A stretch of 64,000 nt of DNA, from assembly GCF_056712565.1 (NCBI RefSeq), contig NZ_CM160072.1, one strand, 5' to 3'. Position 1 is the stretch's first letter; each line of letters starts with the position of its first letter. A program made the position numbers and the translations under genes. The notes below the pieces were generated by a model. That model saw nothing but the letters and a program-made list of their open reading frames with translations, had not been told where the DNA came from and did not search any database. This document shows positions 22,131 to 29,412 of this stretch, piece by piece.

Positions 22131-22222
22131 CCGTTTAACTCCGTGGTTAATGGGTACAACTATTTTCTGTTGTGCAGAGCATAAGACGCTATTTGACCTG
22201 GCTGGTCAGTGGATGAAACAAC

Positions 22223-22253
22223 AGATAAAGAAAAGGCGGGCAATTCGCCCGCC
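22223..22253 (-). terminator. Rho-independent terminator between cargo region and the FI operon
   Basis: 7-bp GC stem ggcgggc/gcccgcc with a T-run on the minus strand (complement of agataaagaaaa). Confidence 0.5.
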
Positions 22254-22460
22254 TGTCCTGATTTGTACTCACTCATTTTCCGCCTGACAATTTACATAGC
22301 CCAAATGCTATCAAACCTGACAGTCTGCTTTGAGCGAAAAGTGGACATTAGAGTTACAAAAGCAAGTTTAAATCATCCAAAATATTACAATGTCCTTATC
22401 TATCTGATATCGTTATGATAAAAAGCTCCTGAATATAATCGATAGTAGGTGGTTATTTCC

Positions 22461-22838
22461 ATGAAATCAATTTTAGAGGTCTTTACTCAAGGAAATACTA
22501 AAGAAAAACTGGCTGTTATCGCCGATCTCACAACCATTGCGGGAATATCGATTGCAACTATTATTGCTGGTTTGTTAACCCTAGTTGCAAAAACAGATAA
22601 ACTAGATGTTGGAAATCTGTTTGGAGTTGTCATAATATCTCTGCTCGGATTGGCTGGTGTTTGCTGTTTTGTGGCCTTATTTATTTGGGTTATAACCCAA
22701 ATGTCTAAACCATGGGGAACACCTCGGGGGGTTCAGCCCTTAGTTAAGTGTGCTATTTCCCTTATCTTTATCTGTATGTTTTTGCTGGCTGTCTTTACAT
22801 TTTATGAGTTTATTTCTTCGATGAGCATACGCTATTGA
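22461..22838 (+). CDS. Small hydrophobic membrane protein (3 predicted TM helices), prophage cargo
   Basis: ORF 22449..22838; likely start ATG 22461 (MKSILEVF) with AGGTGG RBS; AT-rich. Confidence 0.6.
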   Translation: MKSILEVFTQGNTKEKLAVIADLTTIAGISIATIIAGLLTLVAKTDKLDVGNLFGVVIISLLGLAGVCCFVALFIWVITQMSKPWGTPRGVQPLVKCAISLIFICMFLLAVFTFYEFISSMSIRY

Positions 22839-22860
22839 ATATAAAATCAGCCCCCATAAC

Positions 22861-23445
22861 TTAAAAGAGACCTTCTATATCGACTTCAATGCCCAAATAA
22901 CGGACTGTGCTTTCCAGTTTCTTATGGCCCAACAGAAGTTGGATCACCCGGAGACTCTTGGTTTTCTTGTAGATTAAGTAAGGTTTTGTTCTTCTCATGG
23001 AATGTGTGCTGTACAGCGAATCTTCGAGACCAAGCTTTTCTACCCACCCATGAAAAATTCGGTTGTATTGCCGGGTTGATATATGGTGGTTAGTTCCGAC
23101 CCGAGAGCGGAACAGGAAGCCTTTACTATGCCAGTTGCCGAGCTTTATCAATGCAGTAACCGCTTCCCTTGTCCCTTTGGTTATCTCAAATTGGACAGGG
23201 CTGCCGGTTTTCTGTTGCAACACCGTTGCTCTGCTTGAGACAGAACTGCCATATGCAGCATCTGATACTTTGAGTTTGACCAAATCACAGCCCCGTAGCT
23301 TAGTGTCCAAAGCCATGTTGAACAGAGCTAGATCGCGTGTTTTACCTTCCAACTCAAGTCTAATCCGGATCCCCCAGATATGAAATATCTGAAGTGGCCT
23401 TTTTTGACCGATGGTACGGTCTTTATTCCACGGTGACGTTTTCAT
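22861..23445 (-). CDS. Small tyrosine recombinase (phage-integrase family, FimB/FimE-sized)
   Basis: C-terminal catalytic signature HSMRRT...LLGHKKLESTVRYL (R, H-x-x-R, Y); likely start ATG 23445 with AGGAGA RBS giving 194 aa. Confidence 0.7.
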   Translation of the reverse strand: MKTSPWNKDRTIGQKRPLQIFHIWGIRIRLELEGKTRDLALFNMALDTKLRGCDLVKLKVSDAAYGSSVSSRATVLQQKTGSPVQFEITKGTREAVTALIKLGNWHSKGFLFRSRVGTNHHISTRQYNRIFHGWVEKLGLEDSLYSTHSMRRTKPYLIYKKTKSLRVIQLLLGHKKLESTVRYLGIEVDIEGLF

Positions 23446-24275
23446 ATTCAAATCTCCTGCAATGTGGGAGATTTGAGTATGGTTGTCTCTCAAGAGCGAA
23501 AATAAGTCAACTATCACTAGTTGTTGCGCATGTACGTATTCTGTCAATTAATTATTGACAATCATCAATTCTGGAATGATCAAAATCATCATATCGAATT
23601 ATAGTCTGGTTGACTGTATCTATTGTTGGTGTCATTTCTGTTATAATATCCTGATAACCTAAAGAGTTAAATACATTTACTAAGGCCTCACACCGAAGGG
23701 CCGTAGCAATTACAAAATTATAAATTGCCAGCCGTTTATTTTCTTGTTTAACTGCAAGAATGAATTCGATAGCAGTATTTTCATCACTTTGGATTGCATT
23801 ATATAGAGATACTATATTTACCATATCATCAGAGAATGTATGTATTGAATCACAAAGGGGAACGTAATGGGCATGATAGTGTGTTTCCCAGCCAATTAAT
23901 TCAAAAAGTCTTCTGGTTCCTGGATATTCAGGTGTATTTGGCCACAATCTATTAAATAGATCAGTTAGTTCTTTTCCCATGCGAATCCTTTCATTTGCTG
24001 CTGGATTAGTCATTCCTTTGGATTTTAAACACTCCAGCCACCGTTTTCCATTACTATGAACTAATTTCTTACTAGCCTTGAGTAATGCTTGTGCATTTTC
24101 GCCATCATCTATTGCTATATAAAATTGATTGGCAGCCTGTTCTATTATAACCCTAGCTAATACTTCCGATGCTGAAAAGGCTCCTATATTCAAAGAAGAG
24201 ATAGCCTGATTACTAAGTTCATTCAGTACATTAAAGTACTGTAAGACCATCAATTTTTGTTCCACACCCTTTAGG

Positions 24276-24280
24276 TTGTC
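24276..24280. repeat. IS2 target-site duplication, TTGTC (copy 1)
   Basis: 5 bp immediately flanking the IS2 terminus, identical to 25612..25616. Confidence 0.85.
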
Positions 24281-24291
24281 TGGATTTGCCC

Positions 24292-25197
24292 CTATATTTC
24301 CAGACACCTGTTATCACTTAACCCATTACTGGCTTGCTGCCGTAGATATTCCCGTGGCGAGCGATAACCCAGTGCACTATGCGGATGCCATTCGTTATAA
24401 TGCTCGAACGCCTCTGCAAGGTTCTTTGCTGCCGTTAACCCGTCTGGTTTGGGCATGACACTGATGTAGTCACGCTTTATCGTTTTCACGAAGCTCTCTG
24501 CTATGCCGTTACTCTCCGGACTCCGCACCGCCGTGCTCTTCGGTTCAAGCCCCAACATCCGGGCAAACTGCCGTGTTTCATTAGCCCGGTAGCATGAACC
24601 ATTATCCGTCAGCCACTCTACTGGAGACGCCGGAAGCTCGTTGCCGAAGCGGCGTTCCACCGCTCCCAGCATGACGTCCTGTACTGTTTCACTGTTGAAG
24701 CCGCCCGTAGTGACCGCCCAGTGCAGTGCCTCACGGTCACAGCAGTCCAGCGCGAACGTGACTCGCAGTTTTTCTCCGTTATCACAGCGGAACTCGAACC
24801 CGTCAGAGCACCATCGCTGATTACTTTCTTTCACAGCCACTCTGCCTGTATGTGCCCGTTTCGATGGCGGTACAGCAGGTTTTCGCTCAAGCAACAGCGC
24901 ATTCTGGCGCATGATCCGGTAAACACGTTTGGCATTGATCGCAGGCATACCATCAAGTTCTGCCTGTCTGCGAAGCAGCGCCCATACCCGACGATAACCA
25001 TACGTGGGCAGCTCTCCGATAACATGGTGTATACGGAGAAGCACATCCGTATCATCAGTGTGACGACTGCGGCGGCCATCCATCCAGTCATCGGTTCGTC
25101 TGAGAATGACGTGCAACTGCGCACGCGACACCCGGAGACAACGGCTGACTAAGCTTACTCCCCATCCCCGGGCAATAAGGGCGCGTGCGCTATCCAC
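24292..25197 (-). CDS. insD: IS2 transposase InsD (orfB, DDE domain)
   Basis: 301-aa ORF inside IS2. Confidence 0.9.
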
Positions 25198-25520
25198 TTT
25201 TTTGCCCGTCCATATTCAACGGCTTCTTTGAGGAGTTCATTTTCCATCGTTTTCTTGCCGAGCAGGCGCTGGAGTTCTTTAATCTGCTTCATGGCGGCAG
25301 CAAGTTCAGAGGCAGGAACAACCTGTTCTCCGGCGGCGACAGCAGTAAGACTTCCTTCCTGGTATTGCTTACGCCAGAGAAATAACTGGCTGGCTGCTAC
25401 ACCATGTTGCCGGGCAACGAGGGAGACCGTCATCCCTGGTTCAAAGCTCTGCTGAACAATTGCGATCTTTTCCTGTGTGGTACGCCGTCTGCGTTTCTCC
25501 GGTCCTAAGACATCAATCAT
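25155..25520 (-). CDS. insC: IS2 InsC (orfA, HTH)
   Basis: 121-aa product [41 protein letters not shown]...; overlaps insD in -1 frame. Confidence 0.9.
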
Positions 25521-25611
25521 CTGCTCTCCAATGACTAGTCTAAAAACTAGTATTAAGACTATCACTTAAATAAGTGATATTGGTTGTCTGGAGATTCAGG
25601 GGGCCAGTCTA

Positions 25612-26151: not shown

Positions 26152-26679
26152 TTATTGCGGCATTTCCGGCCATTCAGGATTTGCAGGATCCACACGGCTG
26201 ACCAGAACACTGTAGCGTTCCCATGCTTCCAGTCGGCTACGCTCCTCATCTGTTGCCATATTCAGTCTGACAGAGCGTTCCAGTGGCTGAATGATAGTTT
26301 CAGCTTCGGAAAGCAAAGCTGACTTCTGTAATTCCGCCAGTTGCAGCTGTTCGTCTGCCGTATAAATCCGCTTAATCACGGCACCATCCTTAAACATCCA
26401 TTTACCTGAGTCATCAGCACGTCGGTTGGCGGTAATATCAGGAACCTCGACAACGCTAAAACCTTCAGGGTTGAGCGTTGAAGCATCTCTGGTGATGCCG
26501 ACAATTATATTATTCTCATCGTAAACAATCTTTATCGTGTCTTCCTGAAAATTACTTACTTCCTCATACCAGTTTTTTCCCTCTTCGGACCATAACCAGA
26601 TAACATCAAAATTTTTTGTCAGTTGATATTGGGCAACAGTTTTTGGATTACCCGCAGTAATATTTTTTAAATGCTGCAT
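26152..26679 (-). CDS. G: Tail fiber assembly protein G
   Basis: 175 aa immediately downstream of tail fiber gene H. Confidence 0.85.
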
Positions 26680-26682
26680 AAA

Positions 26683-29412
26683 TTACACCTGTGCGACGTT
26701 ATACCATGTGCCATTGATGTATTTTTGTATTGGTCTGAATACTGCGGGGTCATCACCATCGACTTCACCGACAATACCAAGCCCGGTAATTACGTGCCCT
26801 GCTTTCTCATACATCACCCCTTTCTGCATGGTCTGGACAACACGTGTGCCAAGTCTGACATCTCTCACATAGCGGGAATCAAAGTTACCGTAATCCGAGG
26901 GATTAACACGCCCCGTAATATTTATGGTTTTATTACTTTGAACGCTTCCGGAGACAAAGCGCATAACATGGACGCTATTAGCATAAACATCCAGATTACC
27001 ATCACCATTTTGTTTAAAGCCCGTGTCATTATCACCCAAAACAATCGAATTACCGCCAAGAGCACTGGATGTTCCTATACCCAGAGCACCATTCAATTGA
27101 CCACCAGATAACGGCAGTGCACCGACATCTCCCGCTGTAGGTTTTCGCGTTGTGGTATAAAACTCAGACCAGTCAGCCTCGAATCCGTAACCGTCACGAG
27201 CAGAACGATAAAAAATACCACCGTTCTTATAATTAACGCGAAACTGGGCGGCGGGACAACTTCCTTCCCCGATATTAAAATGAAGAATTAACGTTGATGC
27301 CCCACCAATAGTTGCGTTATAGGCTCCGCTACTCCAGTTCCATCCAACGGCTTTATCATTCGCAACGGTGTCTCCTGTTTTTCCTGAAGCAAATGCACCA
27401 ATATTTTTCGGCGTCAGGTTAATATCTGATGTTCCATCAAACGAAACGTTATTAATTTTACGGGCTGTTTTCAGCTTTGTTGCTGTCGCCGCATTGCCGG
27501 ACAGTTCACCAGAAAGGCCAGCACTGAATGTCTGTTTCGCGCCCCATGTCTGGGCTTCGTCGATAATTGGCACACGTCTTGTCGTGATCGTGCGGCTTCC
27601 CGGATTTCCTGAAATACGCACCATAAAAAAGCGGTAGTTGGCTTTACTTACAGTGCTGCGCCATACATGCATTGAGCGTCCCGAACCAGAATCATCACTC
27701 GGACCGACTGAGATGTTTATCAGGTTGCCATCAATGACGCCCCAGTCCATACCGTCGGGAATATTGGTCATGTTATCCAGCCGAACGGTTATCAGACTGC
27801 CCGGCACAAAATCGTATGTCTGCCAGTCCAGGCTGGTGAGTTTTGCCACTGCGCCACCGATACCCAACTCTAACGGCAAAGAGTTTGAGTTATAAATCTG
27901 TCGCCACTCCCCCCACGCGTTAAATGAGCCACCAAGAAACACTCGCTCATATAAACGGTCTTTTGTAGCTGCGCTGGTTCCTGTGGTCGTGTAACGTTGC
28001 AAAACATAGACACCATCCTTGCGCCTGATGACTTCCAGAAAACCAGACTGCCCCTGGATTGGGGTGTGGGTCGCTTTGCCTGTCACACTGTAAATACCTG
28101 GAGACATCAAATCATCCAGGTCATCCTCATAGAAGGTACTACTGGTCTGATAACCAATTTGGATCCAGTCTTCCCACTGTGGATTTTCTGCATCCCATTT
28201 GGCTGTCAGGCCGCGAATATACATAGTCCCGTTACGGGTTGTATAACGCTGTGTGCGTCCATATAGCCCACCTTCGAAAATTTCCAGAATGCCCTGCGCG
28301 TCTCCTCCCTGCTCGGGGTAATGTCGTTCAAAAGAAGCTATTGCTGAACTGCTGTTTCTCCATAGACCTAAATGTTCTGCGCCACCGAGAGAGTTAAGGT
28401 CAATGGTCGTACTTAGAGCTCGCGTTACAGCCTGAACATGGCGCCATGCTCCCCATGGTCCATCATTACCATTCCATGTTCCAATGAGTTTGCGGATATA
28501 CAAATTTCCGTCACGTGTGGTATAGCGTTGCGTGCCTGCAAAATTGCCGCCAGTAAAAACCTCAAGCACACCGACAGCATTATCTTCAGGGAAGTTTTTC
28601 TCCAGTGTTGCGTTGGTGGACGTTGCTTTAGACCAGATACCTGAATAAGCCTTAACAGAACCAAACGTATTCAGATCAGCATCAACCGGCATTTCGCCAT
28701 TGTTTTTCATAAACGTCAGGCTGGTAACGCCAACATTGTCCAGAAAAGCTGATTTATCCTGGATATCTGCACCATTCTGATTTTTCGCCAGACGTGAATT
28801 TGCGTTGTCATTTGCTGCCTTGACCGCTTTTGGCGTTGCTGCCAATGACTCACTGGTGCTGTTTGTTGCACTGCTTAACTGAGTAAAACCTTTTTCTGTC
28901 AGCGTGGCGTCAGGATGGCGGCGGGACTGCTCATGCTCTGCGATTTTGTCATCGACGTAATCCTGCGTCGCCATCACTGTGCTGGCATCAATACTCAGCT
29001 CAACGGACGCCACGTTACTGACAATAATAACCATGCGGCAGGTCTGCGCACGCCCGGAGCCTTCAGCCAGTTCTGGCTTATAGCTTTCAGCCATGTTGGA
29101 TACCGCAATCAGTGTTCCGGCATCGTCATACAGACCAAGCTCACGCATCCAGAAGCCGCCCACTTCGGGCGGTACAACCAGTTCAGCCACGATATAGTTT
29201 TTATTCTTGTTATCCACGCTGACTTTATTCAGAGCGTGACGCCAGACCTCATGCACCAGTTTCGTCTGACCGGCATCCGGCACCGGCAATTTGCCATTAC
29301 CGTCACCCACGGCCATTGCAGACAGGGTTACTTTTTTCCCGCCGGGGACAGTGGCGGCTGCCAGCTTTGCGGCTCCGGCAGTAGTGATAACGGTTTTAAA
29401 TTTCGTGCTCAT
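26683..29412 (-). CDS. H: Tail fiber protein H (909 aa, enlarged distal region)
   Basis: Conserved N-terminus MSTKFKTVITTAGAAKLAAATVPGG; internal repeated modules in distal half. Confidence 0.88.
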   Translation of the reverse strand: MSTKFKTVITTAGAAKLAAATVPGGKKVTLSAMAVGDGNGKLPVPDAGQTKLVHEVWRHALNKVSVDNKNKNYIVAELVVPPEVGGFWMRELGLYDDAGTLIAVSNMAESYKPELAEGSGRAQTCRMVIIVSNVASVELSIDASTVMATQDYVDDKIAEHEQSRRHPDATLTEKGFTQLSSATNSTSESLAATPKAVKAANDNANSRLAKNQNGADIQDKSAFLDNVGVTSLTFMKNNGEMPVDADLNTFGSVKAYSGIWSKATSTNATLEKNFPEDNAVGVLEVFTGGNFAGTQRYTTRDGNLYIRKLIGTWNGNDGPWGAWRHVQAVTRALSTTIDLNSLGGAEHLGLWRNSSSAIASFERHYPEQGGDAQGILEIFEGGLYGRTQRYTTRNGTMYIRGLTAKWDAENPQWEDWIQIGYQTSSTFYEDDLDDLMSPGIYSVTGKATHTPIQGQSGFLEVIRRKDGVYVLQRYTTTGTSAATKDRLYERVFLGGSFNAWGEWRQIYNSNSLPLELGIGGAVAKLTSLDWQTYDFVPGSLITVRLDNMTNIPDGMDWGVIDGNLINISVGPSDDSGSGRSMHVWRSTVSKANYRFFMVRISGNPGSRTITTRRVPIIDEAQTWGAKQTFSAGLSGELSGNAATATKLKTARKINNVSFDGTSDINLTPKNIGAFASGKTGDTVANDKAVGWNWSSGAYNATIGGASTLILHFNIGEGSCPAAQFRVNYKNGGIFYRSARDGYGFEADWSEFYTTTRKPTAGDVGALPLSGGQLNGALGIGTSSALGGNSIVLGDNDTGFKQNGDGNLDVYANSVHVMRFVSGSVQSNKTINITGRVNPSDYGNFDSRYVRDVRLGTRVVQTMQKGVMYEKAGHVITGLGIVGEVDGDDPAVFRPIQKYINGTWYNVAQV

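Follow-up and report, generated by a model that had tools for sequence, protein, structure and literature searches.

How does the tail fibre of a P2-like prophage come to carry a threefold repeated module, and what might the repeat do? The question is raised by gene H in a stretch of 64,000 nucleotides of contig NZ_CM160072.1 (NCBI RefSeq assembly GCF_056712565.1), the whole of which we refer to as the window. Here, an open reading frame at 26683..29412 on the minus strand encodes a protein of 909 residues. A preliminary description, made from the letters alone, had presented this protein as an enlarged tail fibre with three consecutive copies of a module of roughly 100 residues in its distal half, and had taken the triplication to indicate a reshuffled receptor-binding region and possibly an altered host range. 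We conclude that H is very probably the L-413C-type tail fibre and receptor-binding protein, presumably a trimer, of a P2-like prophage, consisting of a collar (residues 1-207), three pyocin knobs (226-516), a gp37-like shaft segment (517-611) and a tip of Mu S/S' and P2 gpH type (612-909), and that the knobs stem from an ancient tandem duplication and are exchanged as a block.

H contains three tandem homologous modules, located on the minus strand at residues 226-330 (knob A; 28423..28737), 331-422 (knob B; 28147..28422) and 423-516 (knob C, the divergent copy and, among relatives, the most variable segment; 27865..28146). At about 95 residues per module the array spans residues 226-516, or about 25-57% of the chain, which places it in the proximal-central part of the fibre, with two of the three modules in the N-terminal half, and not in the distal half as had been described. 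The number and approximate length of the modules were described correctly: we regard the repeat as real because segment-wise BLASTP, shuffling and profile statistics agree. A and B are identical at 33 of 83 positions (40%; E 2e-22), A and C match at E 7e-4, and the match between B and C is weak (E 0.17). Smith-Waterman comparison against 2000 shuffles gives z 29.4 for A-B and z 6.7 for A-C (0/2000 for both) and z 3.3 for B-C (25/2000); controls against non-knob segments of H stay at z ≤ 2.6 in the same test. With an iterated profile, three domains and no more are detected in H, at residues 226-331, 326-429 and 420-516 (E 2e-33, 1e-30 and 6e-18), and no knob is detected in P2 gpH, while a profile from A/B-type modules of other proteins alone still picks up module C at E 1.3e-6. 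The motif G[VIF]LE[VI] recurs at residues 281, 374 and 457, and QRYTT at 295, 388 and 472. The longer pattern first proposed, G(V/I)LE(V/I)F..G....QRYTT..G..Y.R.....W......W..W, applies only in part to the third copy, which keeps GFLEV, QRYTT and W..W and has an insertion after QRYTT. Self-BLAST of the whole protein returned the identity match alone, and segment-wise comparison was needed to see the repeat; performed in this manner, the self-alignment that had been suggested as a check reveals a significant internal repeat.

What are these modules? Judged by profile and predicted fold, they are known fibre domains of the pyocin-knob type and ordinary in kind. Published knobs consist of five or six strands in an antiparallel beta-sheet, with loops at the surface (PMC6116203). 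In an AlphaFold2 (AF2) model all three units of H are predicted as the same 5-6-strand unit, with a predicted local distance difference test score (pLDDT) of about 70-84 for knob A, and they conform to a five- or six-stranded antiparallel beta-sheet with surface loops in about 85-95 residues. A profile of 40 diverse modules (alignment A3) connects them to the solved R1 and R2 pyocin fibres in the PDB, with E 5e-15 for the R2 fibre 6cl6, 1e-11 for the R1 fibre 6cl5 and 1.7e-11 for 6ct8; within 6cl6 the Knob2 region is matched at E 2.7e-11 and the Knob1 region more weakly, at 0.046. Foldseek likewise gives a probability of 1.00 to both 6cl5 and 6cl6, and structure prediction, the second check that had been suggested, is thus in line with a threefold unit. 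On the question of what the module is, our table of structures lists 9.7 for the AS12 gp42 tailspike (6eu4), 9.5 and 9.1 for the R2 pyocin fibre (6cu2 and 6cl6), 8.8 and 8.1 for phi812 baseplate proteins (9euf), 8.4 for phi11 gp45 (5efv), 7.2 for phage K gp144 (5m9f) and 6.7 for T4 gp34 (5nxh). Close homologues carry the NCBI name 'pyocin knob domain-containing protein', presumably derived from a CDD model outside the Pfam and NCBIfam libraries that we scanned.

Two results weigh against the knob assignment. Residues 226-516 are unmatched by Pfam-A (2025 copy), by NCBIfam release 20 and by a member-by-member Pfam scan; as these curated models are silent, the assignment rests on our own profile, the predicted fold and the NCBI names. 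Moreover, the AF2 model is that of a monomer at moderate confidence (pLDDT 70), and its global template-modelling scores (TM-scores) are low, at 0.2-0.3, because the inter-domain geometry is arbitrary in a monomer model. A single-sequence PDB search with H gave no match in the knob region, only matches to Mu S/S' and the T4-like gp37 tip, all outside the knobs. The pyocin knob has been listed as a pseudo-domain that moves between classes of fibre (PMC12143355). We regard the knob region of H as an annotation gap and not as a biological anomaly, given that a 40-sequence profile reaches solved knobs where Pfam and NCBIfam fail, and we suggest the annotation 'tail fibre protein H, L-413C type, with three pyocin-knob domains'.

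How old is the array? Direct DNA repeats in gene H amount to just three chance-level pairs of 16-26 nt, with none longer than 26 nt, and copies A, B and C are about 25-40% identical at the amino-acid level, from which it follows that the duplication is old. L-413C gpH and T6 gp37 (YP_010067397.1, residues 104-400) share all three knobs with H in an unchanged order, and six further phage H proteins of 909-919 residues also have them. A tblastn search with the knob block matched 230 of 50,697 phage records; about 200 of the 230 are T-even phages, whose distal subunit of the long tail fibre, gp37, contains the whole block at 55-58% identity. Residues 226-686 of H are colinear with residues 105-562 of T6 gp37 (52.7% identity over 471 residues, E 5e-164). 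Comparison with other fibres, the last of the suggested checks, thus traces the module to a cassette common to L-413C gpH and T-even gp37. A search of 1.84 billion cluster representatives yielded 222 relatives at E ≤ 1e-3. In the relatives collected, one, two, three, four, five and six knobs are seen in 62, 71, 51, 9, 2 and 3 proteins, respectively, many of these entries being partial. A census of architectures among database matches, confounded by the many partial proteins, is used here qualitatively only. Knob blocks are also present upstream of other tips, either PF25670 or Gp34_trimer with the Peptidase_S74 intramolecular chaperone. Taken at the sequence level, the array is an ancient and widely shared cassette that has moved as a block.

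The protein is also far from rare. The prophage corresponds to that of E. coli ATCC 11775, in which H has the same sequence (WP_000104719.1, 100% identity). At 80% coverage or more, full-length matches to its allele type, of about 910 residues, are found in 28 phage records; among 5,426 complete E. coli genomes, 170 carry it. The isolation hosts of phages with this type of H were Y. pestis EV76 and E. coli, among the latter E. coli C and a uropathogenic strain. The word 'enlarged' therefore holds relative to P2 alone, whose gpH (AAD03286.1) has 669 residues, 240 fewer than H, and does not single out this prophage, as the allele of about 910 residues is common.

How conserved are the knobs between these fibres? 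Compared with H, knob A is 50-95%, knob B 68-100% and knob C 41-100% identical in the six phage homologues. A set of 33 database proteins with at least 96% identity in residues 517-767 falls into classes at the knobs, with 100% or 54-60% identity in knob C and 100% or 67-76% in knob B. Some natural pairs differ in little but the knobs: between H or phage 899 and vB_YpM_50, the tip is 100%, the mid segment 97% and knob C 58.5% identical. In fibres whose collar, mid segment and tip cassette match H at 96-100%, variation is greatest in the knob block, at 41-85% identity. A second variable region is the extreme tip, residues 768-909 (26686-27108), which is at least 95% or about 73-75% identical, for example in P2SIDE7, P0225 and P0226; the allele classes of this tip are independent of the knob alleles. 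The R-pyocin fibre varies most in Knob2 and in its C-terminal domain, for which a two-site binding to the cell surface has been proposed, and a knob-like prism in K1F binds sialic acid (PMC6116203). The two variable regions of H mirror this arrangement, which suggests by analogy that the knobs may contribute to specificity.

Could the repeat be explained otherwise? That a short motif recurs by chance in a fibre protein of low complexity is compatible with the lone identity match in the whole-protein self-BLAST and with the weak scores between B and C (E 0.17; z 3.3). However, the scores for A-B (E 2e-22; z 29.4) and A-C (z 6.7; 0/2000 shuffles), the match of the A/B profile to C (E 1.3e-6), the same predicted 5-6-strand unit in all three copies and the match of the family profile to solved knob structures leave this explanation a negligible probability. 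A recent triplication of one module inside the H of this prophage, by which the fibre was enlarged and a new receptor-binding region was made, would be consistent with three adjacent copies that share a conserved motif in a protein 240 residues longer than P2 gpH. We nevertheless consider it highly improbable: the divergence of the copies and the lack of direct DNA repeats above 26 nt lead us to reject a recent duplication, the allele is found in 170 complete E. coli genomes, and the colinear orthology of the three-knob order in L-413C gpH, the six other phage H proteins and T6 gp37 (52.7%) refutes it. Of the proposed reshuffling, what stands is the mosaicism, as P2 gpH shares only residues 1-207 and 768-909 with H; the triplication itself is neither a sign of recent reshuffling nor special to this prophage. 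It is plausible that the host range differs from that of P2; phages with this type of H come from both Y. pestis and E. coli.

What determines the host range of such a fibre, the knobs, the tip or both? By analogy with the two-site model of the R-type pyocin, the three-knob array may be a second, exchangeable specificity module, in which discrete knob alleles, 54-85% identical in fibres with flanks and tip at 96-100%, would contact O-antigen or outer-core sugars laterally and the host range would be set by knob and tip alleles jointly; we consider this possible but less likely than not. Several points weigh against it. In the P2-like phage P88 the host-range determinants lie at residues 716-746, near the C-terminal tip and not in knobs (PMC5285337). 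L-413C and P2 vir1 need the same critical terminal N-acetylglucosamine (GlcNAc) of the core of the Y. pestis lipopolysaccharide (LPS) although the middles of their fibres differ (PMC3182234). In addition, the high diversity of the knobs could reflect mere recombination between neutral alleles, and a receptor contact by knobs would be drawn purely by analogy. These same observations on P88 and on the shared GlcNAc residue would fit knobs that are purely architectural, as folding nuclei and rigid spacers that set the length of the fibre, with a neutral mosaicism behind their diversity and a host range that derives from the tip (residues 612-909) and G alone. Such a role is also in keeping with the two allele classes of the tip (73-75% or at least 95% identical) and with the folding role of knob domains emphasised by Buth et al., and we consider it a serious possibility, if short of a probable one. 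It accounts less well for a knob block (41-85%) that is far more diverse than the adjoining segments (96-100%) in fibres with the same tip, a pattern that diversifying or frequency-dependent selection typically produces in surface regions, and for the implication of pyocin Knob2 and the K1F knob-like prism in ligand binding (PMC6116203).

Returning to H as an L-413C-type mosaic fibre, how might its parts work together? The P2-type collar (residues 1-207) docks on the baseplate. The three knobs arose by ancient tandem duplication and are passed on and swapped together. If the R-type pyocin fibre is a guide, three copies of each knob should pack into a compact bead in which the beta-sheets face the three-fold axis and the loops are exposed. 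The knobs could then serve as nuclei for folding and trimerisation, keep the chains in register and act as rigid spacers that stiffen and lengthen the fibre, and their exposed, variable loops would probably make lateral saccharide contacts beside a tip that binds the LPS core. The tip cassette itself is presumably folded with help of the downstream chaperone G and would engage the LPS core. We take it as established that the modules are homologous, together with their fold, their number and order, their age and their distribution; from the analogy we infer their trimeric packing and any ligand binding.

The remaining parts of H and the surroundings of the gene agree with a P2-type tail fibre. 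The late genes are arranged as V-W-J-I-H-G, followed by a cargo locus and the FI sheath gene, as in a P2-type operon. H, flanked by homologues of genes I and G, combines this position with an N-terminal tail-collar domain, as a member of the P2 gpH family (Peduoviridae). The tail-collar or baseplate-attachment domain covers residues 1-151 (28960..29412; Pfam PF12571, E 1.7e-57) and is followed by a phage tail fibre repeat at residues 170-211 (28780..28905; Pfam PF03406, E 1.6e-20), where residues 110-176 of the Mu tail fibre S are matched. Beyond the knobs, the gp37-like shaft segment (residues 517-611; 27580..27864) is colinear with T6 gp37 and travels with the knob block. The distal tip cassette (residues 612-909; 26686..27579) comprises a segment at 669-766 that is Mu S'-like or of gp37_C type and a P2/Mu S-like tip at 768-909; in the single-sequence PDB search, 8ju3 (Mu S') matched residues 669-766 at E 4.9e-49 and 5yvq (Mu S tip) residues 833-908. 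The AF2 model of the C-terminal half (residues 509-909) has a pLDDT of 47, too low for a fold search, and gives no confident structure for residues 517-611 and no assigned fold for residues 517-668 and the tip. Gene G, also on the minus strand (26152..26679), encodes a tail fibre assembly chaperone of 175 residues (Pfam PF02413, Caudo_TAP, E 6.7e-34) that is 89% identical to P2 gpG and 93% to L-413C gpG.

Between G and the FI sheath gene lies a cargo locus of low GC content (22200-24310; 34-46% GC versus about 55-60% in the flanks), at the P2 Z/fun position, a known hotspot for anti-phage cargo. The locus encodes a DUF5677 protein, a 228-residue protein of the Phage_integrase family and, on the opposite strand, a predicted membrane protein of 129 residues; a PADLOC scan of the cargo genes adjoining G gave no match. 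An IS3-family element of 1330 bp (24282-25611), with an orfA that carries HTH_Tnp_1 and an orfB that carries rve, is IS2-like by size. It breaks the 5' part of the DUF5677 gene, a target duplication of 5-6 bp being implied, and is missing from the otherwise 100% identical ATCC 11775 reference (CP033092.2), so that the window must derive from another isolate or assembly.

How does H compare with known fibres? Neither the kind of feature nor its sequence is new, and its value as a discovery is small, as RefSeq already lists the identical protein, annotated, for the E. coli type strain and its architecture is that of the published L-413C gpH. The latter (AAP04455.1, 913 residues) is 81.6% identical to H over 914 aligned columns, end to end, and shares with it the collar, three knobs at matching positions, the mid segment, the tip and the downstream G; this colinearity over the full length, three-knob block and tip included, identifies H as an allele of the L-413C type. 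The two differ mainly within the array, with identities of 49.5% in knob A, 82.6% in knob B and 41.5% in knob C, compared with 79.6% in the mid segment and about 98% in collar and tip. According to a later account that cites Garcia et al. 2008 (PMC7460101), L-413C gpH is a four-part mosaic receptor-binding protein whose N-terminal 207 and C-terminal 137 residues are common with P2 gpH, and it has been shown to bind Y. pestis cells. The receptor of L-413C is located in the LPS core (PMC3182234). The limits of what H shares with P2 gpH are close to these published boundaries. P2 gpH has the same gene position, I-H-G, and resembles H in residues 1-207 (collar and first fibre repeat, 84%) and in the tip at 768-909 (52%). 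It differs in that it lacks knobs, has an unrelated central shaft and is 240 residues shorter; residues 208-767 of H have no similarity to P2 gpH, and a P2-type central shaft is thus not present in H. A similar exchange is seen in P0267, a knob-less P2-like fibre of 696 residues that is 66% identical in residues 1-207 and 76% in 612-909, in which a P2-type shaft replaces the knobs and the segment at 517-611 of H is missing as well.

The T-even phages, with about 200 Tequatrovirus records, share the cassette and not the protein. Residues 226-686 of H, three knobs included, correspond to residues 105-562 of T6 gp37, and only this part of H aligns to it. However, gp37 has its own N-terminus that joins gp36, and its distal part is also different and acts together with the adhesin gp38, whereas H has a P2 collar and a tip of Mu/P2 type, and the two are not orthologues as whole proteins. 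The R-type pyocin fibres of P. aeruginosa (R2 PA0620, 6CL6/6CU2; R1, 6CL5) have two knobs where H has three, at a sequence identity of about 12-18%, and belong to a tailocin of a different organism and not to a phage particle; their tip is a lectin-like beta-sandwich that follows an iron-binding shaft, in contrast to the tip of Mu S / P2 H type in H. With Mu S/S' (5YVQ, 8JU3), H shares the Mu S fibre repeat at residues 167-233, a near-identical pattern at 669-766 to the S' part of the 8JU3 chimera, and the S tip at 833-908. Mu S differs in its N-terminal attachment region and, by sequence, has no three-knob block, and in Mu inversion of the G segment switches the variable part. As for an origin of the Mu S'-like tip of H in an invertible segment of the Mu G or P1 C type, no serine invertase or inverted alternative cassette adjoins H-G, and the nearby recombinase-like open reading frame is a small homologue of tyrosine recombinases within the cargo locus. 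With its P2-type collar, three knobs, gp37-like shaft and Mu/P2-type tip, H exemplifies, in textbook fashion, how tail-fibre segments are exchanged horizontally.

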